41,138 nt of DNA from a phage. A model generated the notes under the pieces. That model searched no databases and was not told where the DNA came from. It saw only the letters and a program-made list of their open reading frames with translations. Location: assembly GCA_033178465.1 (NCBI GenBank), contig GCA_033178465.1_4726.2; one strand, written 5' to 3'. Position 1 is the first letter of the stretch; each line of letters opens with the position of its first letter. Positions 1,038-40,726 of the stretch are shown piece by piece. Made by a program: the position numbers and the translations under genes.

Positions 1038-1072
1038 CCTCCTCCCCAGGAAAGGTGTGGGGAGGAGTTTTT
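1038..1072 (+). other. GC-rich stem-loop with T-tract (terminator-like hairpin in the 5' region of the helicase gene)
   Basis: CCTCCTCCCC (1038-1047) pairs with GGGGAGGAG (1059-1067), followed by TTTTT. Belongs to the CCCTCC/GGGAGG hairpin family. No plus-strand gene lies upstream, so its role (terminator, attenuator or RNA-stability element) is unclear. Confidence 0.35.
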
Positions 1073-1102
1073 ATCATACATTCTATTAAATCGAGCGCGA
1101 TT

Positions 1103-3184
1103 ATGTTGGATAGAATCAATCGTTTAATGAACCGAATAACGGTTAAAAATCAGAGTAACAACACCGTGCATATCGGGGGTATCGATGCCTGGCGTCTTTC
1201 AGATGACATTCAGCGAATATGGGGTACCTCCCGATTTATGAAACATATGTTTCGTAATTTCTCTTCTAGTGGACTCAGTCTCCACAACTTTTACCTTCCC
1301 GATTTCGTTTATATTCTCGAAACGATCATCGAAGCAAAGAATACCCGCAGTAATAAACGCATGCTGAAACACCTTATTGAGGTACTGCTGCAGGAAACCT
1401 GGTTGCAAAATACCACAATCGAGCAACCTGCAATCCTCGATAAAGCACGCATGAACAAAATGCTAACGCTCTCTTTGTTCGATTATCAAGATGAGTTTAT
1501 CGACATCTATAACCGTAACGTACCTAAATACCGACTGAAAGGATACGTGTGCGCAATGGGTGCCGGTGCGGGTAAAACAATCACCGCGTTGGCTTTAAGC
1601 GCCGCAATGAACGTCGATGTATTTGTGGTCTGCTGTCCTAAGAACACCATGCGTTCAGCATGGCAATCCGATGTAAACAAAGCCATCGTTGACCCCGCAA
1701 CAGAAACCGCATTCTGGTCAGATACAATGCCACCATCACAGCTGCAGAAAAGCGATAAGTATTATTTTCTGCATTACGAGTCGATGGGCTTATTAAACGA
1801 TGTAATGATCAAGCATAAACGCACAGCGAAGCGAGTTCTTATTGTTGTTGACGAAAGCCATAACTTCAACGACAAGAACAGCCAGCGTTCCCAACGATTG
1901 GTTGATCTCGTACAGACGATGCGTCAGACCATGAATGCGGACGTGCATGTCTTGTTTATGTCGGGTACGCCTGTTAAACAAATGGGTTCTGAGATGATCC
2001 CCTGTTTAGGTTGTATCGACCCGATGTTCCAAGGACAGGTGGTCGATAGCTTCAAAGCAATTTACGGTTTAACCAGCAGTCGTGCTAACGATATCCTCAG
2101 ACATCGTCTTGGGTTCATGATGCATGTTGTGCCTAAAGAGGCTTACCGTAAAACCCGGCCGGAAGTTCAGGATGTTTACGTGAAGCTCCCTAACGGTAGC
2201 GATTATACCATCTCAAGTATCCGCGACGACATGGCGATATTTGTACGCGATCGGGCGAAGTATTACAAGGATAACTGGGGGCATTACCGAAAGATTTTTG
2301 ATGACGCCTTGGACTACTATCGCAAGACTATTCGTACCGATGGTGAACGTAAAGAGCTATCTCGATACGAATCGATTGTTGCTCGTTTCCAGAAAGGTTA
2401 CGACCCCGTCAGAGACAAAGAAGATGCGATGTTCTGCAACACGTTTGAAAAACGAGCGATCATGCCGGTTCTTCCTTCTGATTTAAGGATTGCTTTCAAA
2501 GACGCCAAGAGCGTCATCAAGTACGTTGGGTTGAAAATTCAGGGTGAGGCGTTAGCGCGTGTTCTAGGCGCAGCCCGCATTCGGTGTCATGTCGACATGG
2601 TGGAGTACATCGACTTCGAAGGGTACATCAATAACGCTGAAGCCAAGGTGTTGATCTTCACGTCGTACGTTCAGGTGGTTGAGCGCGTCGACAACATGCT
2701 TCGTGATGCGGGTTTCTTACCTGAACCCATTTACGGGAAGACCAACAAGAACATCAACCAGATACTTGCTCGTCTACGCGACGATCCCGACAGCGGTCCC
2801 GCTATCGCAACATTTGATAGCTTAGCTGAAGGGGTTCCAATGCTGATGTGTAATGTGGGTCTTTTCCTGAACAACCCGTGGCGTTCGTCCGATGAAATCC
2901 AAGCCATCAGCCGTCTCGATCGTGTAGGGCAAACGCAGCCTGTTCGGATTTATCGTTTCATGTTGGATACAGGAAGCGAGGGTAACGTTTCTACACGTAG
3001 CCACGAAATCATGGAGTTAAGTCGACAGCTTGTTGAAGAAATCACGGGCGTCAAATACGTGGTGAACAAGCAAGACGACGTTAACTTGCAAGAAACGTTG
3101 GCGATGGAAGGATACGATCAATACGTTACCGTAAACACCACGGAATACGATATTAAACCACGACCTGCGTTCTTGGAATGGTGA
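1103..3184 (+). CDS. SF2 helicase (SNF2/DExH-like ATPase)
   Basis: Walker A CAMGAGAGKT, motif II VVDESHNF (DExH), SGTP motif III and a helicase C-terminal region. The ORF track starts at a GTG (1055) inside the upstream hairpin, so I take the first ATG at 1103; the start is uncertain. Confidence 0.65.
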   Translation: MLDRINRLMNRITVKNQSNNTVHIGGIDAWRLSDDIQRIWGTSRFMKHMFRNFSSSGLSLHNFYLPDFVYILETIIEAKNTRSNKRMLKHLIEVLLQETWLQNTTIEQPAILDKARMNKMLTLSLFDYQDEFIDIYNRNVPKYRLKGYVCAMGAGAGKTITALALSAAMNVDVFVVCCPKNTMRSAWQSDVNKAIVDPATETAFWSDTMPPSQLQKSDKYYFLHYESMGLLNDVMIKHKRTAKRVLIVVDESHNFNDKNSQRSQRLVDLVQTMRQTMNADVHVLFMSGTPVKQMGSEMIPCLGCIDPMFQGQVVDSFKAIYGLTSSRANDILRHRLGFMMHVVPKEAYRKTRPEVQDVYVKLPNGSDYTISSIRDDMAIFVRDRAKYYKDNWGHYRKIFDDALDYYRKTIRTDGERKELSRYESIVARFQKGYDPVRDKEDAMFCNTFEKRAIMPVLPSDLRIAFKDAKSVIKYVGLKIQGEALARVLGAARIRCHVDMVEYIDFEGYINNAEAKVLIFTSYVQVVERVDNMLRDAGFLPEPIYGKTNKNINQILARLRDDPDSGPAIATFDSLAEGVPMLMCNVGLFLNNPWRSSDEIQAISRLDRVGQTQPVRIYRFMLDTGSEGNVSTRSHEIMELSRQLVEEITGVKYVVNKQDDVNLQETLAMEGYDQYVTVNTTEYDIKPRPAFLEW

Positions 3185-3190
3185 TTAAGA

Positions 3191-3224
3191 AGCTCTGCCT
3201 GACATTAGGCAGAGCTTTATGCTG
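3191..3224 (+). terminator. rho-independent terminator
   Basis: Perfect 10-bp stem AGCTCTGCCT / AGGCAGAGCT with a 6-nt loop, followed by TTTAT, immediately after the helicase stop. Confidence 0.55.
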
Positions 3225-4735: not shown

Positions 4736-4756
4736 AAAAAAAAATAGATAGCATAT

Positions 4757-4794
4757 CTTCCTCCCTACCCATAACGGGCGGGGAGGAGGGTTTA
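4757..4794. terminator. bidirectional terminator hairpin (CCTCCCTACCC ... GGGGAGGAGGG) between convergent genes
   Basis: Imperfect inverted repeat flanked by an A11 run on one side and TTTAT on the other, between the 3' ends of 3284..4735(+) and 4807..5145(-). Confidence 0.5.
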
Positions 4795-9826: not shown

Positions 9827-10312
9827 TTACCCGGCTTTCTGTCGTAGAGCGTACGGATCCATAGCGTCTGATATATCCGAAACAACCGTGAGAATGAAGC
9901 CCTTTATCTGTCTCACTTCGGTCACACGCAATCCTTTATCGTTACGGTATACGTTTTCTTCACCAACCAACTTTGGTCGGATAACATAAACGCCATCAAC
10001 AAACGGGAATGTCGAATACGGATAAACACCAATAGAAATGATGTTTGGATAATCGCCTCGAAGGTCACGTCCGAACTTATCGACTCGACCATAAATTGCC
10101 CCATCCACACCTTCCACTTCAATGAGATCATTTCTAATATCCTGAAATAGCTGCTCTAACGTGTCGGCGGGATACGCGTATGCGACGCCTAACGCTGGAT
10201 CCTCAATGGTTTTGACATTGAATCCGTTAAGCCAAACAATCCGTTCATTCGCCCATGTTTCTTCATATACCGTTAACCCATCGCCGTATATGTTGGCGTG
10301 TGCTATCTCCAT
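9827..10312 (-). CDS. hypothetical protein
   Basis: 161-aa ORF with GAGGAAA upstream of the ATG. Confidence 0.55.
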   Translation of the reverse strand: MEIAHANIYGDGLTVYEETWANERIVWLNGFNVKTIEDPALGVAYAYPADTLEQLFQDIRNDLIEVEGVDGAIYGRVDKFGRDLRGDYPNIISIGVYPYSTFPFVDGVYVIRPKLVGEENVYRNDKGLRVTEVRQIKGFILTVVSDISDAMDPYALRQKAG

Positions 10313-10426
10313 AATCTCATTTCCTCTTCTACGTAGAAATAGATGACATGTTGGATATACGTTGCCTTTGCATATATTGCTTTATTTCCGTCAGAAATAA
10401 CGGAAAATAAAAACAACGACATAGTT

Positions 10427-10456
10427 CCCTCCCACCTCCACATGGGAGAGGGAGGG
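10427..10456 (-). terminator. terminator hairpin (CCCTCCC ... GGGAGGG family)
   Basis: Inverted repeat just downstream of the 10470..10832 stop; a T-rich tract follows on the minus strand. Confidence 0.5.
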
Positions 10457-10469
10457 CTATTCGTGTTTA

Positions 10470-10832
10470 TTACTCTATGCTGTCTTCTTCAACACAATCC
10501 TCTTCGGAACCGTCGAACGTTTTCTGCACTGCGGTGGTATCCCAGTTGGCAGCGTAATCAGCCATCGCTTCGCGCAGCGCTTCTTCACCAGCATCACCAG
10601 CCAGGTCAAGCACAACCAAACCCTGTGCGACGTTTTGAGCAACGGTATCGATAACGGTCGCATCTTCTTCAAAACTACGTACCGGTTCAATGGTGCCTAC
10701 ATCAACAGCATAGTTCGTGGTCGCTGTAAGCACGGCGACTTGTAGCGCATTGCTATCTTCATCATGCAGTGCTGCTTCAATACCGATCGGACGAGCCAGT
10801 TCTTGCAGTGTTAATTTGCGAATTAAGTTCAT
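10470..10832 (-). CDS. hypothetical acidic protein
   Basis: 120-aa ORF with GAGGAAAAC Shine-Dalgarno upstream. The overlapping plus-strand ORF 10343..10654 is judged spurious. Confidence 0.55.
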   Translation of the reverse strand: MNLIRKLTLQELARPIGIEAALHDEDSNALQVAVLTATTNYAVDVGTIEPVRSFEEDATVIDTVAQNVAQGLVVLDLAGDAGEEALREAMADYAANWDTTAVQKTFDGSEEDCVEEDSIE

Positions 10833-10864
10833 TATGTTTTCCTCAGGTGAATGTTAGCAATCGT

Positions 10865-11284
10865 TTAAAACTTTAAAACTTTTTCGATACGATGGTTGAC
10901 GAGTTCATTGAACGACTCTTCAGCTTGTTCGATGATTTCATCAACGTCGATATCTAATTGTTGGGGTTGGATAACATGCTCTTTCATGGTTTCCAGCCAG
11001 TATTCGGCTTTAATCATGACGTTAGCAACGTGTTCGACCTGGCTGCGTATGTCGACGATCTGGCAGTCAGGATTGTTAATATCGATGATGTGTCCGTGGT
11101 GGTTGATAAAACCTAGCTTATTTGATGCCCTTACCGCATCGCGGGTAAGTTCTTGCAAGATTAAATTATTAACGTAGTTCACTGCTACGGAACGATTTTC
11201 GTTGTCACTCATACCAGGGATCCTCTTTAAGTCGTCACATTCTAGTGTTAAGCAGTTAAAATAAACCGTTCCTTTTATCAGCAT
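10865..11284 (-). CDS. hypothetical protein
   Basis: ORF 10865..11290; the second ATG (11284) has better spacing from the GGAGGAGG Shine-Dalgarno, which is itself the 3' arm of the upstream terminator hairpin. Confidence 0.5.
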   Translation of the reverse strand: MLIKGTVYFNCLTLECDDLKRIPGMSDNENRSVAVNYVNNLILQELTRDAVRASNKLGFINHHGHIIDINNPDCQIVDIRSQVEHVANVMIKAEYWLETMKEHVIQPQQLDIDVDEIIEQAEESFNELVNHRIEKVLKF

Positions 11285-11290
11285 AAACAT

Positions 11291-11319
11291 CCTCCTCCCA
11301 CCACATGGGCAGGAGGAGG
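11291..11319 (-). terminator. terminator hairpin (CCTCCTCC ... GGAGGAGG) whose downstream arm doubles as the ribosome-binding site of the next gene
   Basis: Inverted repeat immediately after the 11331..11741 stop and immediately before the 10865..11284 start. Confidence 0.45.
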
Positions 11320-11330
11320 CGTAATATGCA

Positions 11331-11741
11331 TCAGAAAGGAGGACGATCTTTAAATTCTAGCAACGTGTCTTCGAAGCAAGCGATAAGTTCAGACTGCAAT
11401 TCGGTACGGCCTTGTTCACCGAAGAGTTCCAGCAACATTAATCCCCGAGCGGTCTTCGTAGCAACCTCTTCGCAGATGCGGAGATCGTGAACTTCATCAT
11501 CGTTGACATCTTTACGCAACTGTGCCGCAATGGGCTTAGGATTGCCGTTTTCATCGTGTTCGTCACGAAATGCATCATAAGCCGCATCGATGTTCGCGAT
11601 CCGTGTCAACCCTTCAGAATCCCGCCAGTCTCGATATAATCCAAGAAGACGATTATGATTCTTCGTTTTGACGTTCGGTGCTGGAAGGTTGCGCAACAGA
11701 TGTGGCGTAATCATTGCTATCACGCTATCCGAATGATCCAT
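11331..11741 (-). CDS. hypothetical protein
   Basis: 136-aa ORF with GAGGT Shine-Dalgarno. Confidence 0.55.
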   Translation of the reverse strand: MDHSDSVIAMITPHLLRNLPAPNVKTKNHNRLLGLYRDWRDSEGLTRIANIDAAYDAFRDEHDENGNPKPIAAQLRKDVNDDEVHDLRICEEVATKTARGLMLLELFGEQGRTELQSELIACFEDTLLEFKDRPPF

Positions 11742-11752
11742 CGTATACCTCG

Positions 11753-13921
11753 TTAGCTTTCGCAGTCATCTGCGTCGATGATTTGTCCGCCAGCAACGTT
11801 CAGCTGATGATACAGAATCCTCAACGCACGGTTGCCGCCAATGGGATACTTCTCGAAGTTGGTCGCAATAGGAATCGCTGACGGCTTATCGGTCGCATAA
11901 ATGCTTTCAGTGATGCTATCCACCTGTTTTGGATTGTTCGCATAATCCATAAAGACGCTTGCGAACCATCCGCCAGCAAAGGCGGTAACTTCGCGATGTT
12001 CAGATTCACCACAGTAACGAGTTGGTTGCTCTTTACCCGGAGAACTGTATTTATCGCTATTACTGAGTTTCGACGGTAATCCGTGCGCTTGCAGTTTAGG
12101 GATGCCCACAGCCGACCAATCGTTCGCCGTCTTCTCTAACATCATGATGTACGTGTCACCGATCGCAATATCGTTCTTGGTTGTCCGCCACTGTCCAGAA
12201 CGCCCACGGTACCGTACGGGACCTTTCTTCAACGGGAACTCACGAATCAGATTCTCCATACGTTCTGAACCTGCTGCGATACTGTCCGTCGGGATATAAA
12301 CTTCCGTACCGTGGCGTTGTACGTACCGTAAATGATCCCATTTATCCTCATCCGTGATACAGTATTTTTCAACAACCTGTTCCACGAACTCAGGACTGAC
12401 GATATAGTAGTAGCGCATCAGTGTGTTCCAAGCGGTCTCCAGATCGCCCGCATCCATCACTGGTTTCAGTTCACGCATGATCTGATCACCAACGCCGTTG
12501 ATGTACGGTGCGTTAACACGACTTAAACTCATCCTTTTGATTACCGTACTATCGTCGAACATGAAGTCCGCAACGTTACCCCATTGGTCGACCGGCATTT
12601 CATCGTCTTCCATGATGTCGGTTACGACGAATTTATCACCCGCCATACCAGTGAATTTAAACCCGATACCTGGAACAACGTCGTACGTGTACGTGATGGT
12701 CACACGCCAATCATCGAGATTCTCTTTTCGGTAATCGCGAGTCGGTAGCACATGACGTAGCTGTCCGTTAGGATTGCGGATATCAATACCGTGTTCAGCA
12801 TCAGCCAGGTTCAACCACCACATCACCGTTTGATGATGACGTATCGGCGTACCAACGCGTTCACGTTCGTACTTACGAACAGCATCCTGAATTCGGGTGT
12901 AAAGCAAACCGATTGCGTTCTCGTATTTCAGGAATTGACGATACGGAGGACGCATCTTCTCTTCCATCATAATCGCACGCTCGCGGGCTTGACGTCCAGA
13001 ACGACGATGTCGATCGCTGACAACATCGATATCCGTTACACGCGCATTCGGTTCAGCGTAAGTGAGGTCGTCGTAAACATAATCCACGCGCTGAAGGTTA
13101 CACGTCATCATGTCAACAACGCTGAGGATAGGATCGATTTCGCGTGTTGCTGCGAGTAACCCATCCTTACGAATACGCTCACCGTTCTCGGGTATTGCTT
13201 GATATACCTCATCATCACCGTAGAGATTGATTGGGTATCGTGATTTACCTGATGTGATCGTTCGCTTCTCAATGCCGGTACTGGTGAAATGCTTCAATAC
13301 ACCACGACGGGCAACACCACCATCCTCAATACACTGATAGAAGCTACCGAAACACACTTTGCAATCGCGACCGTAACCCCACTCGCGCGTTTCTTGATTG
13401 ATCGCTGGACTTTCCATCAAACGAGAATACCGCGGTACGATCTGGCCTCGACGAAGGGAATGGAACAAGTTGGTTGGTCGAAAACGGAAACCGTACTGCT
13501 GATGCATGATGTGATGCTCGGGCACTTCAAGCAAGCGTAGCTCGTGACGGTTACCATCCTCTTGGTTTTCATACAGCACGTAATGCATCGTGTTTGTTTT
13601 GATGCTGTTTGCTGTATGCCCCGGTTGGAAACGTGGGATGATATCTATGATGCGAGATTCAACTGGAAACTCTACTGACCAAGTGTTCTGTCCGTACTGG
13701 TATTCAATCCCCGTCGTTAATCGGGACGGCTTCGCATCTTTGATAACCAACGCTTGGCTAAGATGTCCACCAAACATCGCAGCGCGCTGTGCTGAGTTAT
13801 AATGCAGTAGCCCGTTAAGTCCAGTCCCTACGCCAGTATACTCCTGTTTAATGGGAATGATTTTACCTTCAGCGATTGCCTGCTTCACAGATTCATAAAG
13901 AGGTTTTTCTTTATAATGCAT
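11753..13921 (-). CDS. multisubunit RNA polymerase beta subunit, C-terminal fragment
   Basis: [49 protein letters not shown] parallels E. coli beta [62 protein letters not shown] parallels [37 protein letters not shown] parallels RQAVPTLRADKPLVGTGME. Start taken at the ATG at 13921 (GGAAG Shine-Dalgarno) rather than the ORF-track start at 14086. Confidence 0.55.
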   Translation of the reverse strand: [722 protein letters not shown]

Positions 13922-13952
13922 AGGACTTCCTATTATCGAATTGAGGTACGTC

Positions 13953-14306
13953 ATGTCTAACACGCCCCTGAACGACTTTCTTAAGACAAACCCCGATGAC
14001 CTCATCCACGATCTTGATTTCAGGAACGTTGTTGAGATGCATCTGGAATATTTCAAAAATGCCGGACTGGTCTCTACGATAGACATACCACCCGAACGCG
14101 CCTACGAATTCGATGGTAACTTTTATGGATTGTGTCGTGTTCTGCTCGGTGAGGGCAGTGAACCAATGCACTGGATAACCATGAGACTCAATGGTTATCG
14201 CGACCCTACGGAATACACCGCCGATGTTCTAACCATGAAGATTGTCGATACAAGCGCAATCAACACATTAAAACAACAGTACCGCACAATCCACTACAGC
14301 GCTTAA
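13953..14306 (+). CDS. hypothetical protein (plus-strand gene embedded between minus-strand genes)
   Basis: ORF track begins at a TTG (13941); I take the ATG at 13953, which has GAGGT upstream. Ends at a terminator hairpin. Confidence 0.4.
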   Translation: MSNTPLNDFLKTNPDDLIHDLDFRNVVEMHLEYFKNAGLVSTIDIPPERAYEFDGNFYGLCRVLLGEGSEPMHWITMRLNGYRDPTEYTADVLTMKIVDTSAINTLKQQYRTIHYSA

Positions 14307-14311
14307 GATAA

Positions 14312-14340
14312 CCCTCCCACAGCGTAAAGCGTAGGGAGGG
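14312..14340. terminator. bidirectional terminator hairpin (CCCTCCC ... GGGAGGG)
   Basis: Inverted repeat between the convergent genes 13953..14306(+) and 14372..15652(-). Confidence 0.5.
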
Positions 14341-14371
14341 CATTTATGCCGTCGTTCGTTGGCTTAGCACA

Positions 14372-15652
14372 TCAGAAACGATTTACGGTACGTCCTGTCC
14401 ATGCGCTCAGGATGTTGTTACGTTCCATCTCAGCCCGACGACGTAAACCGTTTGGCGACTGCGGTGCTTGCGGCATCCCCCACCCAGCAGGCTGCATACC
14501 CATACCAGGCCAAGCGGAATTATTGAACATCGTACCGTTACGTTCCGCAACACGGTTCATCAGCGCATCAAACGTGCTATTACCTGCCGGTTGGTTACCG
14601 CCACTTTCCCACTGATTAGGTTGGACAGGTGCGGTTTTACCTAACAGGTTATCGATCACACTGCCTGTTGAAGCAGGACGCGGTTGTATACCTTCATGTG
14701 CAGCTGCTGATGGATTTGGCTTAACCGTCGGCTGTGGACGACTGTTCAGCGTTACACCCATGTTGTATTTCGCTGGCGGAATCTGACCACGATGTTGATT
14801 GATCGGTTCAAAATCCTCAACCCAGGTAACATCACAGTAACCGTTCTCTTTACCGTCGTACTTATCACCAAACAGTTTGATGAGATTGTTCAGCGGTTCC
14901 ATCAGCTTAGCGAAGCTGTGGATAAGACAATCGAAATACGGAGCATGAGGATCGCTTGACCCGGCGTTGTACGTTTCGCTTACTTCACCCGCGTGCGGGA
15001 TAACGTACTCGACCAGGTTTCTCAGCATGTTAAGATCTTTCTTGGAAATCTCAACACCACACCAATACGTTTTCTTATCTTTCGTGCTGATATGTTCTTC
15101 TTCCATGAACGGGAAAGTAACTACTGCAACACGGGTCATCTTCTTACCCATGTAGGTTGCGCCGGTACGACGAAGATAAATTTTGGACAGCGTATACGGC
15201 GTATCACGTTTCAGCCAAACGGTGACCAGTTTACCCAGGGTCGTTAGTGTTTTATCGCTGGCGTCCGCAAGGATGTTGAAGAACTCTTTTTGCTTCGGTC
15301 CGAAACGTTTTGCTTCTTTAGGATTGATTGCGGTTTCAACCATCCAAATCAGCATGGAGCATAGCGTGGCGTTAAAACGAACAACCATCGCACGACGCAG
15401 GAACTGAAGTACTTCCGATTCGCCGTTCATCACGTCTTCACTTAGCGGATGGAACAGCACACGTTCAGCCAGCTGATTTCCGGTACGGACTTCGGAAACC
15501 GGCATCAGCAACGGCATGCTTTCCACGGTAGCGGCAACTGCAACAACTTTACCATCCCCATCCGTAAAACGATATTCTAATTCGTGGGCGTCATTCTCAA
15601 AATAGTTAACGCTCTGTAGTGCTTTGCGATAAGCTTCGATAAGCTTCGACAT
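14372..15652 (-). CDS. hypothetical protein with a low-complexity Q/P/G/N-rich C-terminal region
   Basis: 426-aa ORF with AAAGGAAA Shine-Dalgarno; the last ~110 residues are compositionally biased. Confidence 0.6.
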   Translation of the reverse strand: MSKLIEAYRKALQSVNYFENDAHELEYRFTDGDGKVVAVAATVESMPLLMPVSEVRTGNQLAERVLFHPLSEDVMNGESEVLQFLRRAMVVRFNATLCSMLIWMVETAINPKEAKRFGPKQKEFFNILADASDKTLTTLGKLVTVWLKRDTPYTLSKIYLRRTGATYMGKKMTRVAVVTFPFMEEEHISTKDKKTYWCGVEISKKDLNMLRNLVEYVIPHAGEVSETYNAGSSDPHAPYFDCLIHSFAKLMEPLNNLIKLFGDKYDGKENGYCDVTWVEDFEPINQHRGQIPPAKYNMGVTLNSRPQPTVKPNPSAAAHEGIQPRPASTGSVIDNLLGKTAPVQPNQWESGGNQPAGNSTFDALMNRVAERNGTMFNNSAWPGMGMQPAGWGMPQAPQSPNGLRRRAEMERNNILSAWTGRTVNRF

Positions 15653-15679
15653 ATTGTATTTCCTTTTCTTTACGTCAAC

Positions 15680-15701
15680 GGTCCCCCTACAACAGGGGAC
15701 C
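15680..15701 (-). other. intergenic hairpin GGTCCCC-loop-GGGGACC
   Basis: 7-bp inverted repeat between 15708..17294 and 14372..15652; no clear U-tract, so terminator function is uncertain. Confidence 0.3.
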
Positions 15702-15707
15702 TATGGA

Positions 15708-17294
15708 TTAGAAGTTGCCTTTGGTAGTTACCGCATCCACCAGGTTAAACAAATCAACACTCAGCTTATACACCTCCTGCTGGCTACGGTTGAGCAGCGG
15801 GCTGTATGCGGATGGGTTGATGTTCGGCATGGTGTACGGAATCGGTGCAGAGCCGTCAACGCTGATCTTGAACTGGCTGTCCAGGAACAGGTTAATCGCA
15901 CCGCTCACCATAACCGCATTCGGGTTGTTACCCAACATGGAGGGTAGGATATTGGTAATCATGTCAGAACGCATTTGTTCAGCAGCACGGTTACAATCGT
16001 ATCCTTTAATGAACGGTACAGCGTCGGTAACCGCAACCGCCCACTGACCAGGCATGATACCGAGTTCTGGGTGACCATGGTTGTCAGCAATGAAACGGAA
16101 CGACTCCAACATGCGATACGTCATCGCAGCAGGCATCATTGCAGCAAGCGATGAGCAATACAGTGTTGGATAATCGATCACGTCCCAGCTCTGGCTGTCG
16201 GTCGGCATCCAACCAAACTCGGTGGTTGCTGATGTACCGCGACGGGCTTCCACATACGGGAATAACGTTAAGACGTCACGGATATGTTCACCGAACATCC
16301 GTTTCATGTCCGCCCAACTCAGGCTACCGCTGAAAGCGAACCCTTCATCACGCATAATCGCACCGAATACCGGATGCGCAACCAGCGGTTCTTCACGAAC
16401 AGCTTGAGCGGCTTCTACGTAAATATCCTCGTTCTCTGCGCTACCTGGATGAGACCCGCTTTCGTACGTCTGACGAATAGCCCCGACGTTATCGAAGGCT
16501 TTTCTTAGATAGATGGTTGGGATGTTCGTATCAGCACTAGCCGGTTTGATTTTCTCCGTTGCGAAACACATTGCTGCTTCCACACCACGGAAAACCGGTT
16601 CCGGTTGCGGTGGGTAGGATGTACGATGAACCACGTCAGCGTAGGCGGGATCGAACTGCTGCATTACGTTCTGCATGGCTGGGTCCATGAACTGGTTATC
16701 AAAACCACCATTACCTACCCAACGTGCTGTTGATGCATAGGTCAGCGTATCCTGAACACGCGTACTGAACTGAACATCACGATTAACAGGGTCGTATGCG
16801 CCGGTCAACAGGTTCGTTGCGTCCATCGGGGTTGCACGAACGATTTGCTTACCGAACATATCTGTCGTGGTTGTTTCGGTTACCTGGATTACGTTCGTGA
16901 AGAAGAACACCAGTTCGTTCGGCAGATCGATAGCACGCGTTGTAAACGCATCGAGGCTTACAGAATGGTCGGTGTATCCAGAAATGTAATGGACACGCTT
17001 GGTTCCTGGTGCAAGGGCCAAGGATTCTTCTACAGCCATCATGAAATGGAAACGACGTGTGCCCCAACCATTCGCAATCTCCGAAACCCCCTCAGGTTCT
17101 GCAGACTGTTGTAACAAACCGGTTGCAAGCTTGTTGATTGCTGATGGGGTTGTTGCCGTACCGAACTTCGTCGTGTTAATAAAGTCTTCGATGCTACGCA
17201 TGCTATCTGCATGGAATCGTAGTGGACGACGTTGTACATTGTTGTACGGTGCGGTTTCAACCATCAGTATTTCACGAACATTCATCGGGATCAT
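15708..17294 (-). CDS. hypothetical protein
   Basis: 528-aa ORF with AAGAGGAAA Shine-Dalgarno; its start lies 1 nt from the stop of the upstream gene. Confidence 0.6.
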   Translation of the reverse strand: MIPMNVREILMVETAPYNNVQRRPLRFHADSMRSIEDFINTTKFGTATTPSAINKLATGLLQQSAEPEGVSEIANGWGTRRFHFMMAVEESLALAPGTKRVHYISGYTDHSVSLDAFTTRAIDLPNELVFFFTNVIQVTETTTTDMFGKQIVRATPMDATNLLTGAYDPVNRDVQFSTRVQDTLTYASTARWVGNGGFDNQFMDPAMQNVMQQFDPAYADVVHRTSYPPQPEPVFRGVEAAMCFATEKIKPASADTNIPTIYLRKAFDNVGAIRQTYESGSHPGSAENEDIYVEAAQAVREEPLVAHPVFGAIMRDEGFAFSGSLSWADMKRMFGEHIRDVLTLFPYVEARRGTSATTEFGWMPTDSQSWDVIDYPTLYCSSLAAMMPAAMTYRMLESFRFIADNHGHPELGIMPGQWAVAVTDAVPFIKGYDCNRAAEQMRSDMITNILPSMLGNNPNAVMVSGAINLFLDSQFKISVDGSAPIPYTMPNINPSAYSPLLNRSQQEVYKLSVDLFNLVDAVTTKGNF

Positions 17295-17295
17295 T

Positions 17296-23645: not shown

Positions 23646-23656
23646 CGCAAATATAC

Positions 23657-24207: not shown

Positions 24208-24235
24208 CACCTAAGTAATATAGCCGTGAAAAATG
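24208..24235 (-). promoter_or_regulatory. putative phage early promoter (minus-strand TTTTCACGGCTATATTACTTAGGTG)
   Basis: Second copy of the conserved motif, upstream of 23657..24142. Confidence 0.5.
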
Positions 24236-24240
24236 TTGGA

Positions 24241-25038: not shown

Positions 25039-25080
25039 GATTGTCCTCGTTTTCAATTTTAAGATTGCATGCGGCATAAA

Positions 25081-25105
25081 CCCTCCCCGCCTTATGCAGG
25101 GAGGG
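25081..25105 (-). terminator. terminator hairpin (CCCTCCC ... GGGAGGG)
   Basis: Inverted repeat after the 25121..25759 stop, followed on the minus strand by TTTATGCC. Confidence 0.5.
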
Positions 25106-25120
25106 TAGCCATTAAATGGA

Positions 25121-25759: not shown

Positions 25760-25774
25760 TACAGGCGTCCTCCT

Positions 25775-26008
25775 TTAGCAATGGTTGTTAGTTGCTTCTA
25801 TTTCGTCAAGATACGGTTCTACGTCATCGCCCTCCACGAATTCGTTGAACCAACAGTCAATGGTAGAAATAACCGGCGACTGGTGTTCACATTTCTTAGA
25901 TACCTTAAAAGGTACGTTATTATCCATCATACCGAGTTCGGGTCGAAAACGCCCGAAATGTTTCGCAGTCCAAATGTCTGGGACGATATGGTTGTTCATC
26001 GTAGTGTT
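25775..26008 (-). CDS. RNA polymerase beta' N-terminal subunit, proposed terminal exon (exon 4)
   Basis: In-frame translation NTTMNNHIVPD...ELGMMDNNVPF parallels E. coli beta' (DGD)QMAVHVP...ARALMMSTNNILSP, the region just after the catalytic motif. Begins right after a CTG that follows a conserved hairpin (26012-26037). The ORF track lists this as a 79-aa ORF 25775..26014. Confidence 0.5.
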   Translation of the reverse strand, partial: NTTMNNHIVPDIWTAKHFGRFRPELGMMDNNVPFKVSKKCEHQSPVISTIDCWFNEFVEGDDVEPYLDEIEATNNHC

Positions 26009-26357
26009 CAGCATGAGTCGCTACCTCATACCCGCAGCTTTACCTGCAGCTTCCGGTGTTACCGGAATGTCCAGAATACATCTTATCCATATTCCAAATG
26101 GAACGTAGGACTTCCGCGCTGGATCTCGCTTGAGACCACGTATTCGTTGAACGTTCTCCTGAACGGAGCTTCGCTGCTGATCGAACATTGTTACGTACGG
26201 TAGGCGTCCCCGAAGGGATTGTCATTGAAGCCGCGTACATCCGCTACCTTGTTTCTACCTTATCGGTTCCTCTTACGAGGCGTAGCGGCCTTAGCCCTTC
26301 CCAGCAATTCACGGAATCCAAGCTCTTCCTTTCGGAAGACAGGGCCTATGATTAAGC
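26009..26357 (-). ncRNA. group I intron-like element C (ORF-less), approximate boundaries
   Basis: Minus-strand core elements in canonical order: P-like GAATTGCTGGGAAGGG (26315-26300), Q-like GATCAGCAGCG (about 26183-26171), R-like GTTCAACGAATACG (about 26143-26130), S-like TAAGATGTATTC (about 26090-26077), then a 3' hairpin with GTAGCGA loop and CTG before the exon. Confidence 0.5.
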
Positions 26358-26367
26358 GTCACCGTCG
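26358..26367 (-). CDS. proposed 10-nt micro-exon (C GAC GGT GAC) supplying the DGD of NADFDGD
   Basis: Lies between S element of intron B and P element of intron C; preceded by ...AACAG (candidate terminal G). It is the only placement found that restores the catalytic aspartate triad in frame. Inference only. Confidence 0.35.
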
Positions 26368-26743
26368 CTGTTATCGACTATATCTTCATCCTCGTTGCGA
26401 GGAGTCTCCCGTTTTGGTCTGTGTTTAACAGAACCTACTCTACTCGACATCGCGTCTTTCGATAGTCTGTGAGCATACATCTTAACGAACATTCGTGGAT
26501 TCCTAAACAGGTGAATGTTCTTGTTGAGATGCTTCGCTGCGGATTATTCCCGTCCTACCTCTTTTACCATACCCAGTTCATTACGCTGGCCCTCATCTGT
26601 GTCACCACGATGAGTTGGTGTGTAGTCCGATTACAGAAACTTCCCGTCAATTAGAGAGTTTTAACTACGTTCCTGTTACCAGAAACCAGATCCCGACGGT
26701 ATCAATAAATCAACGTAAGTTATTGATTTAATTGAAAAAACTG
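26368..26743 (-). ncRNA. group I intron-like element B (ORF-less), approximate boundaries
   Basis: Minus-strand P-like AATTGACGGGAA (about 26657-26641), P5-like GGGTATGGTAAAAG, Q exact AATCCGCAGC (26544-26535), R-like GCTCACAGACTATC (about 26478-26461), S-like GAAGATATAGTCG (26387-26375). The 3' tail after S is unusually short (7 nt), so the junction is uncertain. Confidence 0.5.
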
Positions 26744-26765
26744 AAATCTGCATTATCTAAATCTT
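26744..26765 (-). CDS. proposed 22-nt micro-exon (AA GAT TTA GAT AAT GCA GAT TT) supplying ...DLDNADF
   Basis: In-frame N-A-D-F codons at 26754..26744, immediately after the intron A 3' hairpin plus CTG and immediately before intron B. Inference only; the exon may start at 26762 instead. Confidence 0.4.
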
Positions 26766-27140
26766 CAGTATGGTTCGCTACACCATACCCGCACATACGT
26801 GCAGCTTACGTCTTTCACGTAAGAAGAGACTATATCTTTCACCCTCAGCATTATCTGGTCGGGGCCCCCATTTCGGCGGTCAGATGACCGGTGGTTTCCC
26901 ACGCCGCTTGGCCCTAACGCCCGTAAGCGATAGTCGTTGAGCACATCTCCGTTCTGGAGACTTCGCTGCGGATTCCCCAATCCTTGCCGCTTTTACCATA
27001 CCTGAATGATTAGTTCAGCCCCACACTCTGTTCCCAGGCGTGGTTGGTGGACAAGGCTCTAAGTAGGTTCCCGCATTAGGGAGTTCCTCGTAACAACATT
27101 TCTGCGTTACTGGGCCTAACGACCCTTTCAAGATCATCAC
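26766..27140 (-). ncRNA. group I intron-like element A (ORF-less), approximate boundaries (5' splice site estimated 27130-27146)
   Basis: Minus-strand P-like TAATGCGGGAAC (27080-27069), P5-like CAGGTATGGTAAAAG, Q exact AATCCGCAGC (26974-26965), R-like CTCAACGACTATCG (26941-26928), S-like AAAGATATAGTCTC (26839-26826), and a 3' hairpin GGTATGGT-GTAGCGA-ACCATAC (26795-26770). Confidence 0.55.
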
Positions 27141-28364
27141 GCTTAACCCGATGGTATTATCCTGCGGATCGCGTTTAACCTTGGTGATTTCAAGACATTG
27201 GTTACTGCTTCGGTCAAGTGATGGGTTTCGAACAAAACCACACACAATCCCATCGAACGGTGTATCAGCAATAAGCTCATCGTGCAGCTCACTCATCATC
27301 GGATGATAATTACGGACATGTTCCGCAACGAACGCACGTGCAGCTCTTGGTGAATAACCACGATGGAATAACTTGGATTGGATATGTTCTTTATTGGTTA
27401 AAGTAAATGGCGCGTATGGGAAATGCAGATGATAATAACGATGGTTCGCTGTTATCGAACTGATTACGGTACGCGTGGTGAATGGATGTAATGTACCTAA
27501 TATGTTTTTACGTGTAATACCTTTCTTCTTACCGATGAACTCATCGAAAATCGCCGCGTGGTATTGCAGCAGCTTCAATTGCACTTTCGCCATCCAGTTT
27601 TCTTTCTTTCTGGCGCTCAAAGGTGTTGTTGGGTGATAGATACTATTCAACGTACCGATAGCATCGATCGCACCTTCCATTTTGCTATCCGCATAACGAC
27701 CGGTTGGCGTATTCTCGATAACGAACATCATGGCCGCAGGAAAGCTGATATACTGACTGAAGAACTTATCACGATGGATACGGATGAATTCTCGTAGCGT
27801 GTCAACTTTCTCCGTGTTCTTCGGTCCACGTAACGTCGGTCCTTTATACAAGATCTCCATGATGCGATCGAAGTTCTGTATAAAGCTATTTACACCACGA
27901 CGTATCCCGAATACATCGAATTGCTGCTCCAGATAGTTCTTGAGTTCGATGGGTCGTTTTACATTTGGACGGTAACTGGCATCAATGAGCCACGTCATCG
28001 TTTCAAAGCTTTTGATATTCAACTCGCTTGCCAGCACGAGATGGACCAACGGGTTAATGAACGCATCGATTCCTTCAGGAACGCGCGCCCAAACAGTCGA
28101 ACGAATCTCTTGTTCTGCTGGGTAGGTTACAACCGTTTTACAGTTTGGACACACCGTGCCGAGTAGCTCACCACGATTGTAGAAACCACAACCACATTGT
28201 GGTGTGATATCCAACGTATCGCTGGAGTAAACACGGGTGATAAAACTGTTTAATTTCTTCTTCTCTTCGACGACTTTTGTATCGTAATCATTCAACAAAA
28301 TCGGCGTAAAAGGAAGTTCTGCGAGCTGTCTATCGAAACTCACGATATCGAGCATGATGGCCAT
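27015..28364 (-). CDS. RNA polymerase beta' N-terminal subunit, exon 1 (ORF as listed; true 3' end probably about 27130-27146)
   Basis: Zinc-ribbon [20 protein letters not shown] matches the beta' N-terminal Cx(2)C...Cx2C; [26 protein letters not shown] parallels [35 protein letters not shown] parallels NRAPTLHRLGIQ. The ORF then runs into intron-like sequence and stops without NADFDGD. Confidence 0.6.
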   Translation of the reverse strand: [449 protein letters not shown]

Positions 28365-28406
28365 GGGGTATCTCCTACAAATGAAAAAGAACGTTAGGAC
28401 GTATAA

Positions 28407-28430
28407 GGGAGGGAGGTTGCCCTCCCTCCC
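28407..28430 (-). terminator. terminator hairpin (GGGAGGGAGG-TTGC-CCTCCCTCCC)
   Basis: Perfect 10-bp inverted repeat 27 nt downstream of the chimallin-like gene stop, with a U-rich tract downstream on the minus strand. Confidence 0.55.
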
Positions 28431-28456
28431 GTCAGATTACATCGAACGTTCTTCCA

Positions 28457-30352
28457 TTAGAACAGGTTGAATGCCCCACCCATGTTGTTAACGCCAACAT
28501 TCGGACGATCGCTACGTGCGTAGATGTTACCGGAGATGTTACCCAGACCACGAGCACGTGCTGCCATGTTACCACGAACAGCGGTACCTGCCAGATGCTG
28601 GATGTTCTCAGGACGGATGGTGAAGCCAGCGTCAGCAGCGGCTTCGATCAGCGCCTGCAGTGCTAACGGATCGAAGTCGTAACGCATTGCCCAGCCGGTT
28701 TGTTCCCAGCTACCAGACAGAACACGATCAATGATTTCGTGACGAGCGACAACACGCTGAGACATCGTCATATCGGTACGGTCGAAGCTGTCTTCCCAAG
28801 CTTCTACGGTATCCGGGTTAGTGATGTTCATCATGTACAGATCGTCCATATCACGAATATCGTGACGGTGGCCATCCTGGTGGTTGTAGTGACCCAGCGG
28901 GATACGGTTACCGGTAGCGTAGACCAGCGGTAAGCCGTACTGATATTTCTTGCTGAAGCAGCCCAGGGTAGTATCATCGAAGGCACGGTAGAGTGCTTTG
29001 TAACCTTCGGAGATTTCACGGACTTCGCCTTCAACTTTACCCGTATAGATCTTCTCAGCCGCCGGGATCATACGCAGCAGCCAGCTGTATTCGCCTTCTT
29101 CCGGTACGTCGATAGAAATCAGCAGAGACGGATACAGTACCTGTTGCAGGAACTTGTAAATCTGCTCGTTGGTTTGAGTAGACAGATCCAGCGGTGCGGT
29201 AACTTCCGGATCCAGTACCATTGCCAGAGCACCCGGGTTATGCGGACCGATGCCACGAGCAGCGTTGCTGATTAAAGACTGTGCCCACGCCATACCGCTG
29301 TTCAGCGTAGCGATGGTACCAATCAGACCCAACACGAAAGTGTTCGGTGTGAACGCATCCAGCTCCAGCGGGTAAGCACTGGTCATCACGTAACGCGGCT
29401 GGTATTGTACAGTCGGCGGTACCGGATAACCGTTAACCAGAACAGGGCCTTGGTTGAAGGTCGGGTTCTGCGGGCTGTAGGTCAGGTCAATGTAACCGGT
29501 GGTGGCGACCAGACGCTGTTGACTATCGTAATCGCTCATCGCTTGACGGATGCGGTTAGAGATAGTTACAGTGATGTCAGAACGCACAGGGTTACCAACA
29601 ATATCGCTGTCCTGCATACCGCTGGTGTTGTACTGAACGCTGCTGATTGGCTGATCGCTTGCCATCATGCCCAGGTTGAACTGCGGCAGACCCAGTTTAT
29701 CACCGAGACGGATTTCGATCGCGGTTTGGATTGCGTTATCTGCAGCAGACAGCAGGGTGGTTGCCAGATGCGCAGATTCAGCGGTGATTTCATTGGTCAC
29801 CACAGCCAGACCAGCGATACGAGCAGTACCATTAGACTTACCGCCAATAGCTGCATACATTGCCGCCATGACTTCGTTGATGAACGTACCGTTCAGGTTA
29901 TCAACCCAGGTACGCGGTACCAGAATGTTACCGTGCGGACCTTGTTCTTCACGACGCGGCAGCGGAGCCAAACCGGCAACCAGCGGAAGCACATAACCGA
30001 AGAAGTGGTTATGGTCACCAACTTTTGCACCACTCATAACGACCAGGGTCGGATACGGTACACTGTACTGGTTAGGATCGACGGTCACCATGATGAAGTC
30101 GTCTTTGAATCCTTTATCTTCCAGTTCTTTCTCCATCAGACGACGGAGATTCAGTACCTGCTCGGAGCCAGTATTACGGCTAATACGACGGCTCAGTGTA
30201 CGGTTGATCGTACGCATCGTATGAGTTACTTTAGGCTGGCCAGCAAAATCTGCAGCGGTTTCCAGCGCCTCATCAGCACGTTGTGCGGTGCGGGTTTCAG
30301 CTGCACGAATTTCTACATTATCGTTACCGTTATTACGTACGTCTAAGCCCAT
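28457..30352 (-). CDS. chmA: putative chimallin (phage-nucleus shell protein), alternatively another major early protein
   Basis: 631-aa ORF with AGAGGA Shine-Dalgarno, driven by an early-promoter motif and ended by a strong terminator. It sits immediately upstream of the beta' N-terminal gene, matching the gp54-gp55 arrangement I recall for phiKZ; the length matches known chimallins (~630-700 aa); both termini look disordered. No motif-level confirmation is possible by eye. Confidence 0.5.
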   Translation of the reverse strand: MGLDVRNNGNDNVEIRAAETRTAQRADEALETAADFAGQPKVTHTMRTINRTLSRRISRNTGSEQVLNLRRLMEKELEDKGFKDDFIMVTVDPNQYSVPYPTLVVMSGAKVGDHNHFFGYVLPLVAGLAPLPRREEQGPHGNILVPRTWVDNLNGTFINEVMAAMYAAIGGKSNGTARIAGLAVVTNEITAESAHLATTLLSAADNAIQTAIEIRLGDKLGLPQFNLGMMASDQPISSVQYNTSGMQDSDIVGNPVRSDITVTISNRIRQAMSDYDSQQRLVATTGYIDLTYSPQNPTFNQGPVLVNGYPVPPTVQYQPRYVMTSAYPLELDAFTPNTFVLGLIGTIATLNSGMAWAQSLISNAARGIGPHNPGALAMVLDPEVTAPLDLSTQTNEQIYKFLQQVLYPSLLISIDVPEEGEYSWLLRMIPAAEKIYTGKVEGEVREISEGYKALYRAFDDTTLGCFSKKYQYGLPLVYATGNRIPLGHYNHQDGHRHDIRDMDDLYMMNITNPDTVEAWEDSFDRTDMTMSQRVVARHEIIDRVLSGSWEQTGWAMRYDFDPLALQALIEAAADAGFTIRPENIQHLAGTAVRGNMAARARGLGNISGNIYARSDRPNVGVNNMGGAFNLF

Positions 30353-31701: not shown

Positions 31702-31720
31702 TCACCTCCTCTTCCCTTGC

Positions 31721-31750
31721 ATCCTCCCTTCCCTTACGGGTTGGGAGGAT
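31721..31750. terminator. bidirectional terminator hairpin (ATCCTCCC ... GGGAGGAT)
   Basis: Inverted repeat between convergent genes 30607..31701(+) and 31768..33921(-). Confidence 0.45.
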
Positions 31751-31767
31751 GGGGATGGTGGGTTATG

Positions 31768-33990: not shown

Positions 33991-34030
33991 AAAAAGAACC
34001 GATCCAGCCGAAGCCAGATCGGTTAAAAAA
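33991..34030 (-). terminator. terminator hairpin flanked by A/T runs (GAACCGATC-loop-GATCGGTT)
   Basis: 8-bp stem with A6 on one side and A6 on the other on the plus strand, which read as U-tracts on the minus strand; downstream of 34221..34634. Confidence 0.45.
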
Positions 34031-38019: not shown

Positions 38020-38073
38020 GCTTTCTCCTAGACGGCATAAAAAGCCTGCCCCGAAGGACAGGCTCGATAGAAC

Positions 38074-39292: not shown

Positions 39293-39356
39293 GTGAACTC
39301 CTAATTTAATATGTATTTAACGCACAATGAATCTTTCTTTGCTAAAGGGGTGACCC

Positions 39357-40199
39357 ATGGGTGCTATTGACTACAGTGTAGATCGTATCTGTCGTACAAT
39401 ACCGGCAGATATCCTACAGTATTGCTATATCGATCGTTACGACTGGCGTAATCGCTATCCTCGTTCCGTAGAAGACATCATTACCGATTGGGTAATCCGT
39501 AAACGGGTTATCGGCGACATCGATATCTACGGGGGACTACAAACCGTTATCCCCCTTGATGATGCCGGTGTCACTATCGAGGAAGTCACCATTAACTGTT
39601 ATGTTTTCCACATCCCGTTGGAAGCCACGCAGGGACGTTATATCACGTCTGCATTATCCATTATTTCAGGGAGCGTGAACAACTACGGAATAAACTATAA
39701 CGGGCAATGGGGTGCTTTCAACCAAACCCAGTTTCAACGTCAGCTTTGTGGGTGGAACCCCGCAAGCAACACGTTACAGCAAGGGATGAACGCGTTCGGT
39801 CCCATGAACGTTCTTAGTACAGCCAACGTTGATATCATCGCCCCTAACACCATCATGGTGAACAACGTCACGCCTGTACAATTTCCCCTGAGCCTACGCT
39901 GTTTCCTTGCCCACGATCCGGAACTTACCAACCTCAGCATGGAGGTTTGGAACGACTTCTACAAACTCTGTTTATACGCCACACAAAGTGACATCTACAA
40001 TAGAACCGTTATCCGTCTCGATAGAGGTGTTACAGCACAAGGACAAGAAGTCGGTGCATTCAAGGAATACATCGATCGCTTTGCCGATGCTGAAAACACA
40101 TATCAGGAATTCCTGAACGAAACGTGGGCTGGCGTTGCTGCCTGGAACGATCCACAAACTAAACGTCGCGCCATTCGACTACAAACCGGTTACTTCTGA
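39357..40199 (+). CDS. hypothetical protein (plus strand)
   Basis: 280-aa ORF with AAGGGG upstream of the ATG, ending at a terminator hairpin. Confidence 0.55.
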   Translation: MGAIDYSVDRICRTIPADILQYCYIDRYDWRNRYPRSVEDIITDWVIRKRVIGDIDIYGGLQTVIPLDDAGVTIEEVTINCYVFHIPLEATQGRYITSALSIISGSVNNYGINYNGQWGAFNQTQFQRQLCGWNPASNTLQQGMNAFGPMNVLSTANVDIIAPNTIMVNNVTPVQFPLSLRCFLAHDPELTNLSMEVWNDFYKLCLYATQSDIYNRTVIRLDRGVTAQGQEVGAFKEYIDRFADAENTYQEFLNETWAGVAAWNDPQTKRRAIRLQTGYF

Positions 40200-40726
40200 T
40201 TAACGACAGCTTCCTCCCTCGGAGTTTTCGAGGGAGGTATTTGCCGTTTGAACACTTTCAGCATGTTCGCAAAATCAGCAGCAATAATACAGGCCGAGGT
40301 TGACAGCTTATTGCTGAAAATGAGATCGTCCGGTAAACAATCGAACTGAATACCGTATTGCGTCTTTGTCTCATCAACGATCAATGATGGTGTCGATCTT
40401 GTCTTCGCGATGTCGGTGATATACAAACGTAAAAATAATTCACCGTCTTCGCTATCCATAAAACGATAAGCGTTACCAGAAAACGCAGCATGCGGCGTAA
40501 CGATAAATTGAACACGGTCGTCGGTCGGATGGATATTTAACCAACGTTCGATATCACTGCTACTCACATTTTGCATATTTACTACGGTAAAAGCAAATAG
40601 CGTATCGTGATGTTTGGAATAATGCAGCACATACGCCGCATCTTTCTTTTTGTGAATCCCTTCAATGTATTCTATTGTCGTATAGCCGGATTTATATAGC
40701 TTTACTTGCGGTTTATCACTCATCAT
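40190..40726 (-). CDS. hypothetical protein
   Basis: ORF 40190..40807; ATG at 40726 overlaps the upstream gene's stop (ATGA). Confidence 0.5.
   Translation of the reverse strand: MMSDKPQVKLYKSGYTTIEYIEGIHKKKDAAYVLHYSKHHDTLFAFTVVNMQNVSSSDIERWLNIHPTDDRVQFIVTPHAAFSGNAYRFMDSEDGELFLRLYITDIAKTRSTPSLIVDETKTQYGIQFDCLPDDLIFSNKLSTSACIIAADFANMLKVFKRQIPPSKTPREEAVVNQK
40213..40237 (+). terminator. terminator hairpin (CCTCCCTCG-loop-CGAGGGAGG, then T-rich tract)
   Basis: Follows the 39357..40199 stop; the hairpin sequence lies inside the 3' coding end of the convergent minus-strand gene 40190..40726. Confidence 0.45.

Follow-up and report, generated by a model that had tools for sequence, protein, structure and literature searches.

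The stretch analyzed here (hereinafter the window) comprises 41,138 nucleotides of phage DNA (contig GCA_033178465.1_4726.2 of the assembly GCA_033178465.1), whose genes lie nearly all on the minus strand and include those for RNA polymerase subunits, chimallin (28457-30352), DNA polymerase and PhuZ. At the ends of these genes lies a family of stable hairpins followed by a short sequence box, which is the subject of this analysis. Bases 10000-30000 of the window are 97.5% identical in a megablast comparison to Escherichia phage vB_EcoM_Goslar (hereinafter Goslar), a nucleus-forming E. coli jumbo phage, of which the window represents a close strain. The Goslar annotation was transferred to the open reading frames (ORFs) of the window, and gene names such as gp159 follow Goslar. 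The genome-wide counts given below were obtained on the assembled Goslar genome (233 kb; 243 coding sequences, with the start and stop codons all verified), which is 92.9% coding and about 7% intergenic. The hairpin family is undescribed for Goslar in the literature searched; in the Goslar genome paper, a terminator predictor was run, with nothing further on terminators.

The first-pass annotation had claimed eleven hairpins between 1038 and 40237, here named by the coordinates it gave them, and all eleven are present (Table 1). Their folding energies range from -16.8 to -34.5 kcal/mol, with z-scores of -3.4 to -5.8 relative to dinucleotide shuffles, and a fold scan ranks them among the most stable local structures of the window. 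The CCCTCC-type 5′ and GGGAGG-type 3′ arms ascribed to them hold at nine loci, while the arm order is reversed at 28407 and the hairpin at 15680 is not of the CCTCC type. The pattern CCTCC-N3-25-GGAGG has 12 matches at 9 loci of the window as against 0.24 expected, with none of the shuffles reaching 12; such hairpins with TATG within 9 nt number 8 matches against an expectation of 0.00, and the opposite order, GGAGG...CCTCC, is seen at a single locus, 28407. The CCTCC...GGAGG match at 37770, within gp236, does not fold as such a hairpin and was treated as chance. The placement at gene ends also stands for ten of the eleven, which lie 2-31 nt from a gene end, but not for 1038, which is located between divergent genes. 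Those at 4757, 14312, 31721 and 40213 separate convergent genes, and those at 10427, 11291, 15680, 23612, 25081 and 28407 separate co-directional minus-strand genes. To these we add three further hairpins without CCTCC arms (3189, 33997 and 38043) that also follow a gene end, 3189 and 38043 at 4-8 nt from the stop codon and 33997 at 196 nt from the upstream stop.

The T-rich tract that had been described as usual after these hairpins did not survive closer inspection: the recurring 3′ element is instead a box of the form (T)TATG-YYGT on the transcribed strand, spaced 0-5 nt from the stem. A canonical T-run, defined as at least five T in the 8 nt directly after the stem, was found in a consensus scan of the CCTCC hairpins only at 11319-11291 and 23648-23613, and the T count in the first 8 nt past the window stems is mostly 3-4. 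The box is not exact at 1038, 15680, 23612 and 28407. The three added hairpins share it without having CCTCC arms, which makes the box a more general mark of the family than the arm sequence. Across Goslar the box is directional, with TATG starting at most 5 nt from the stem on 32 of the 44 sides facing incoming transcription as compared to 3 of the 22 other sides, against a background rate of 3% in intergenic windows. Likewise, among mixed-sequence hairpins of Goslar, the box follows 10 of 28 intergenic versus 2 of 86 in-gene cases. The positions after a hairpin-linked TATG are occupied by Y (81%), Y (83%), G (52%) and T (52%), whereas the other 124 intergenic TATGs show no comparable YYGT pattern. 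Judged against synonymous-codon shuffles, only two tetramers are more depleted than TATG on the sense strand of Goslar genes (for TATG, 715 observed versus 1042 expected; z = -15.3); GGAG and CCCT are likewise depleted, whereas TATC belongs to the most enriched ones (z = +13.5).

A census of the complete Goslar genome for hairpins with at least six perfect pairs and a pyrimidine 5′ arm returned 42 intergenic and 4 in-gene calls, corresponding to about 36 distinct loci and well above the roughly 8 expected genome-wide from shuffles; hairpins with a purine 5′ arm (10 intergenic and 9 in-gene) compare with an expectation of 10.6. Altogether Goslar has about 45-50 hairpin-plus-box elements. About 13 near-identical copies share the two-tier design CCCTCCTCC-AACCCGTAAGGGAA-GGAGGAGGG, with the inner module AACCC-GNRA-GGGAA, and their outer stems vary by paired C/T and G/A transitions in such a way that the 5′ arm stays all-pyrimidine. 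At co-directional junctions, the hairpin of the transcribed strand is the more stable one in 37 of 50 cases (mean difference -1.6 kcal/mol, p = 3e-4), and 91 in-gene hairpins show no strand bias in stability. The bias is clearest at 23612, where G-U pairs make the stem perfect on the transcribed minus strand only and the imperfect plus-strand form reaches -14.6 kcal/mol versus -31.3; it argues for a function in the transcript. A role at the DNA level, as a cruciform, was considered and is disfavored by the transcribed-strand G-U bias.

These features match a terminator family with mapped RNA 3′ ends in other jumbo phages. In phiKZ, 61 intrinsic terminators have been mapped, with the consensus 5′-BCCYCCCCHWWDGGGRRGGBYTTATKYYGT-3′, and the genome has six bidirectional termination regions between convergent genes; pooled over the six phages of that study, 28% of the termination sites lie within the next gene (Putzeys et al. 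2024, PMC10914365). When 50 kb of phiKZ were scanned with the same script, we recovered nine hairpins with a pyrimidine and none with a purine 5′ arm, seven of the nine being followed by a TATG-YYGT-type box such as TTTATGTYGT. Conversely, the 3′ half of the published phiKZ consensus finds five window terminators at no more than 3 mismatches against 1.4 expected, and 25081 is the closest fit to the consensus with 1 mismatch. A covariance model (R1) built from only six equal-length phiKZ copies has as its top 8 window matches 3189, 11291, 10427, 38043, 25081, 14312, 40213 and 4757, all of them at gene ends and on the transcribed strand, with rough E-values of 1e-4 to 0.34, the last three being weak. 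Thus, the window elements share with the phiKZ motif the pyrimidine 5′ and purine 3′ arms (at nine loci; inverted at 28407 and absent at 15680), the adjoining downstream BY-TTAT-K-YYGT box on the transcribed strand, the placement after genes and between convergent genes (except at 1038), and a similar density, 61 terminators in phiKZ as against the 45-50 elements of Goslar.

They depart from phiKZ in the loop. In the window the 4-nt HWWD loop on a 7-8-bp stem is not the rule: 4-16 nt, mostly 7-16, lie between the perfect arms, and a tetraloop closes a single stem only at 23612 and 28407, with a 4-nt loop also on the inner stem of 31721. In the 50 kb of phiKZ the stems are plain, with 8-9 bp and loops of 4-5 nt, whereas in the window and Goslar the perfect arms are mostly separated by 5-16 nt and often form a two-tier stem with an inner CCC-GNRA-GGG module. 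These longer, structured loops are a lineage variant of the phiKZ-type architecture. A parallel is offered by phage 201phi2-1, whose motif A (n = 59) strongly resembles the phiKZ motif according to its authors (Poppeliers et al. 2024, PMC11512511) and, as described there, can be extended by a second motif, giving a longer stem that recalls the two-tier stems of the window. Eight terminators of that phage, picked for motif variety, reduced downstream reporter expression in vivo, and others lie in 5′ untranslated regions (UTRs) just past start sites (PMC11512511).

We further located the surroundings of the chimallin gene in phages of other genera by tblastn on their records. Erwinia phage RAY and Klebsiella phage Eowyn each have about 10 hairpins near this gene that are followed by TTATGCCGT, and most of their stems read GGGAGGG-loop-CCCTCCC, a polarity opposite to that of the window. 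Near the chimallin gene of Ralstonia phage RSL2 there is a single box-bearing stem, of mixed sequence, and no hairpin-plus-box was found around that of Bacillus phage AgentSmith. The box is thus retained in phages of Pseudomonas, E. coli, Erwinia and Klebsiella irrespective of arm polarity; it is the conserved part, whereas strand-asymmetric stems recur with a lineage-specific polarity. With canonical Rho-independent terminators the elements share a G+C-rich hairpin near the stop codon and, for a two-way use, the reliance on complementary flanks, which are CATAA...TTATG in the window versus A-tract...U-tract in bacterial terminators; they differ in having the TTATG-YYGT box and strand-asymmetric pyrimidine/purine arms in place of a U run. 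The PeSLs of T4-like phages, reportedly described by Comeau and colleagues in 2014 as composite promoter and stem-loop terminator motifs, recall them in being a repeated intergenic stem-loop beside a short signal for the polymerase; each genome has many near-identical copies, and the repeat shows signs of recombination. The PeSLs, however, carry a sigma-70-type early promoter, whereas the window elements have TATG downstream of the stem.

Based on the above, we consider it probable that the hairpins terminate or attenuate transcription by the phage's own polymerases, constituting the Goslar-lineage version of a phiKZ-type module. As Goslar-lineage copies of an already described phiKZ-like terminator family, they are largely of a known kind. 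The hairpins taken for terminators in the first pass agree in sequence and structure with the motif of mapped RNA 3′ ends in phiKZ and 201phi2-1, from which we extend RNA 3′ ends at the motif and termination in vivo to the window phage. The module would have two parts, a stable G+C-rich RNA hairpin, usually with a CCCTCC-type pyrimidine 5′ arm and a GGGAGG-type purine 3′ arm, and the directional (T)TATG-YYGT box 0-5 nt downstream on the transcribed strand. As a phage-encoded multisubunit RNA polymerase nears the end of a gene, the hairpin would fold in the nascent RNA, and the enzyme would then stop or release in the weak UUAU(G) stretch; the transcription unit would thereby be ended or attenuated, with the mRNA keeping the 3′ hairpin. 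With CATAA-hairpin-TTATG in the DNA, the element could work in both directions between convergent genes. The suggested two-way termination is plausible at 4757 and 31721, which have TATG on both sides, and partly so at 14312, with TATG on the plus side and TTATC on the minus side. The hairpin at 40213 does lie inside the coding 3′ end of the opposing gene, as had been noted (gp232, 40190-40726, minus strand); it has a box on the plus side only and hence looks one-directional, serving gp233.

Several points weigh against the terminator reading. Most copies are without a canonical U-tract, so that the release mechanism would not be of the textbook type; an exact TATG box is missing at 15680, 23612 and 28407; the loops of the window mostly exceed the phiKZ tetraloops in length, and many stems are two-tiered; and no annotated gene is transcribed into the hairpin at 1038. 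No transcript-end data for Goslar were found in the literature searched, and termination is therefore inferred by homology, the phiKZ elements having mapped 3′ ends and those of the window being known from their sequence. The RNA polymerase that responds could be one of the phage's two or that of the host, and the mapped 3′ ends of the relatives could partly reflect exonuclease trimming back to the hairpin.

The box itself admits other roles, as 5′-TATG-3′, with the G at +1, is the essential core of the phiKZ late promoters for the non-virion RNA polymerase (nvRNAP), which show no conservation downstream of it (PMC4666361). If the hairpin-adjacent TATG were such a core, with its G as the start, the elements would be terminator-promoter cassettes that end the upstream transcript and restart transcription for the next gene; the box does lie 16-108 nt upstream of the real start and Shine-Dalgarno sequence (SD) of the next gene at co-directional window junctions, and the avoidance of TATG in genes would suit a promoter core. 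Nevertheless, the box is nearly as frequent at the convergent junctions of Goslar (17 of 26 sides), where a promoter would yield only antisense RNA, and the hairpin-linked TATG has the YYGT extension, which the phiKZ late promoters are without. Moreover, no such hairpin is present in the region of the model late promoter that precedes phiKZ gene 119, and TATG by itself is insufficient for promoter activity in vitro (PMC4666361), leaving the cassette interpretation unlikely in our assessment. That the box may be read by the phage's own RNA polymerase is suggested by its cross-genus conservation independent of stem polarity, its identity to the late-promoter TATG and its avoidance in genes. On these grounds we tentatively raise the possibility that the box, rather than being a degenerate U-tract, is a polymerase-specific pause-and-release signal, read on the non-template strand as at promoters and reused in elongation: the beta-like subunit would capture TATG while the polymerase passes the hairpin, the enzyme would stall 4-7 nt past the stem, and the hairpin would then release the RNA. 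A different account would have the hairpins serve chiefly in RNA stability or processing, as blocks to 3′ exonucleases or as nuclease sites, or would regard them as repeats that recombination has spread, with transcription running through them and the 3′ ends arising post-transcriptionally. It would fit the very stable stems with GNRA or UUCG loops, the near-identical inner modules of Goslar, which suggest copying between sites, the inner-loop inversion between strains at 31721 (see below), which shows recombination within the repeat, and the scarcity of canonical U-tracts. Yet a directional, sequence-specific box downstream of the stem would not survive in an RNA trimmed to the hairpin, and this points to a signal read by the polymerase on DNA or nascent RNA. 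With the in vivo reporter effect of the eight 201phi2-1 terminators (PMC11512511) also against it, and a stabilizing role being compatible with termination but no substitute for it, we hold this account to be decidedly improbable.

The first-pass annotation had also taken the GGAGGAGG arm at 11291 to be the only SD of the next gene, by which hairpin formation could couple termination to translation initiation. Extended to the family, the GGGAGG arm would be the SD and the box ATG the start of a translational operator or shared ribosome-binding site, with the hairpin masking the SD and linking translation to termination or to the gene before it. The arrangement GGGAGGG-N3-5-ATG indeed resembles a strong ribosome-binding site, the upstream stop codons lie 11-14 nt from the hairpins, and the deposited annotation begins gp167 (whose annotated start is the box ATG after the 10427 hairpin), gp183 and, elsewhere in Goslar, gp047 at the box ATG. 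However, on the plus strand, the "next gene" at 11291 corresponds to an ORF of 61 aa, rich in arginine and serine, that runs antisense to gp170 (annotated with 136 aa), and on the minus strand gp169 has an SD of its own, with AAGAGGA-N9-ATG (11212) opening its conserved frame in both the window and Goslar. Downstream of the minus-strand ATGs at 11290/11284, the window differs from Goslar by a 1-nt indel, and in a 96% relative a 1-nt deletion falls between the ATG at 25077 and the GAGGA-N6-ATG (25038) that opens gp183. Such frameshifting changes between the box ATG and a downstream ATG with its own SD indicate that the intervening stretch is not coding. The same box follows hairpins at convergent junctions that have no gene downstream; the usual SDs of the Goslar-type phage are AAGGA, AGGAG or GAGGA; and in RAY and Eowyn the arm beside TTATG is CCCTCC rather than GGGAGG, implying that the purine arm is not there to supply an SD. 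Both this role of the purine arm, rejected on the RAY/Eowyn polarity together with the gp169 and gp183 indels, and the proposed coupling at 11291 are therefore set aside, the hairpin-adjacent ATGs of gp169 and gp183 not being real starts, and a translational operator appears highly implausible to us. The likeness to a ribosome-binding site is incidental and a cause of misannotation. Through it, the start codons of gp169 and gp183 have likely been misannotated and that of gp167 has probably been misplaced as well; whether gp167 (31 aa in Goslar and 39 aa in the window) is a gene at all is doubtful. A 1-nt deletion in the window joins a 28-codon ORF next to the hairpin to gp169.

Table 1. Hairpins of the window, named by their handles in the text, and the two-tier copies in Goslar. 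E, E-value in the covariance-model search.
Hairpin	Coordinates	Strand	Description and position	Energy (kcal/mol)	Flanking sequence	E
1038	1039-1067	+	CTCCTCCCCA-loop-TGGGGAGGAG; putative terminator in the Goslar annotation	-20.6	then TTTTTATCAT	
3189	3189-3218	+	mixed-sequence 13-bp hairpin 4 nt past the gp160 stop; missed in the first pass	-21.6	TTTATGCTGT, starting within the last stem bases and ending at 3225; phiKZ half-consensus with 2 mismatches	1e-4
4757	4755-4791	both	two-tier pyrimidine/purine hairpin, candidate two-way terminator; convergent gp161 (plus)/gp162 (minus)	-25.2 (+), -21.0 (-)	plus side TTTATGTCA (also ...GTTTATGTCA); minus-side TATG overlaps the stem base	
10427	10427-10456	-	13 nt past the gp168 stop	-21.7	GGGAGGG-AACTATGTCGT	0.005
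11291	11291-11319	-	11 nt past the gp170 stop	-22.9	then ATGTTTATGCTGA	0.004
14312	14312-14340	both	between convergent gp172 (plus, 5 nt) and gp173 (minus, 31 nt)	-17.9 (+), -18.4 (-)	plus side GGGAGGG-CATTTATGCCGT; minus side TTATC only	
15680	15680-15701	-	GGTCCCC/GGGGACC hairpin 6 nt past the gp174 stop; not CCTCC type	-16.8	no TATG box on the transcribed strand	
23612	23613-23648	-	terminator candidate after gp182; 16-bp stem, UUCG loop	-31.3	then CCATTCTTTTTTATTTTTG	
25081	25080-25106	-	14 nt past the gp184 stop	-22.5	GGGGAGGG-TTTATGCCGC	0.01
28407	28407-28430	-	reverse-polarity GGGAGGGAGG-GCAA-CCTCCCTCCC, 26 nt past the chimallin stop	-23.8	then TTATACGTC	
31721	31704-31763	both	long imperfect pyrimidine/purine hairpin, core 31721-31750	-34.5 (+), -33.2 (-)		
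33997	33997-34024	-	mixed-sequence hairpin between gp243 and gp244	-18.3	then CTTTTTTATGCCGT (box TTTTTTATGCCGT)	
38043	38043-38065	-	GCCTGTCC-UUCG-GGGCAGGC, 8 nt past the gp235 stop	-18.0	then TTTTATGCCGT	0.007
40213	40213-40237	+	13 nt past the gp233 stop, in the last codons of gp232	-18.9	TATTTGCCGT on the plus side	0.29
Two-tier copies	Goslar: 4149, 15778, 27746, 36846, 48107, 49776, 61009, 63715, 71990, 93445, 134586, 174267, 224384					

Some of these loci merit individual comment. The hairpin at 1038 lies between the divergent gp159 (minus strand, start 894) and gp160 (plus strand, start 1103), 35 nt before the start of the latter, and is a 5′-UTR or orphan copy rather than a gene-end copy; the 5′-UTR terminators of 201phi2-1 could explain it. 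About 35 nt upstream of it, on the plus strand, there is a hairpin-less TTTTATGGATTGT (996-1006). Were this a TATG-type start, 1038 would be a 5′-UTR terminator or attenuator of the helicase gene gp160 and would resemble the early-terminated 5′-UTR transcripts of 201phi2-1. The hairpin at 31721 fills the gap between the convergent gp245 (plus strand) and the DNA polymerase gene gp244 (minus strand), with TTATG beyond the extended stem on both sides. Its inner 14 nt (31730-31743) differ in orientation from strain to strain, reading TTCCCTTACGGGTT in the window and in one IMG/VR relative but AACCCGTAAGGGAA in Goslar and in another relative. Recombination between the arms of the hairpin appears to have flipped this segment, thereby switching which strand's RNA carries the GNRA loop. 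As in the window, a terminator-like hairpin follows the chimallin gene in Eowyn. In PhiPA3, an enhanced crosslinking and immunoprecipitation (eCLIP) peak of ChmC lies between chmA and the next gene, with no motif reported.

Apart from the hairpins, the window has two group I intron-like elements on the minus strand beside the nvRNAP beta′ gene, about 70 nt apart. The one at 26352-26734 scores 50.7 bits, at the Rfam threshold, and that at 26806-27142, with a score of 29.7 bits (E 2.5e-5 in a search of 1.3 kb), lies for the most part inside a 367-nt stretch (26757-27123) that is missing from Goslar. A 1065-nt HNH endonuclease segment of Goslar is in turn missing from the window. A conserved intergenic motif, TTTCACGGCTATATTACTTA(C/G)GTGA, occurs on the minus strand at 941-961, 50 nt upstream of gp159, and at 24213-24233, 95 nt upstream of gp182; Goslar has four close and three looser copies, all in one orientation. 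Within this motif lies TATATTAC, which we take to be the phiKZ early-promoter core.

The hairpin-plus-box arrangement provides a simple rule for recognizing the ends of transcription units in Goslar-like phages, an E. coli model of the phage nucleus, and also flags start codons misplaced by gene callers. If the pause-and-release proposal is true, the elements would be terminators at which a sigma-less multisubunit polymerase pauses and releases its RNA in a sequence-specific manner. The observations suggesting that the box is read by this unusual phage enzyme make its termination mechanism directly testable with a few template mutants.

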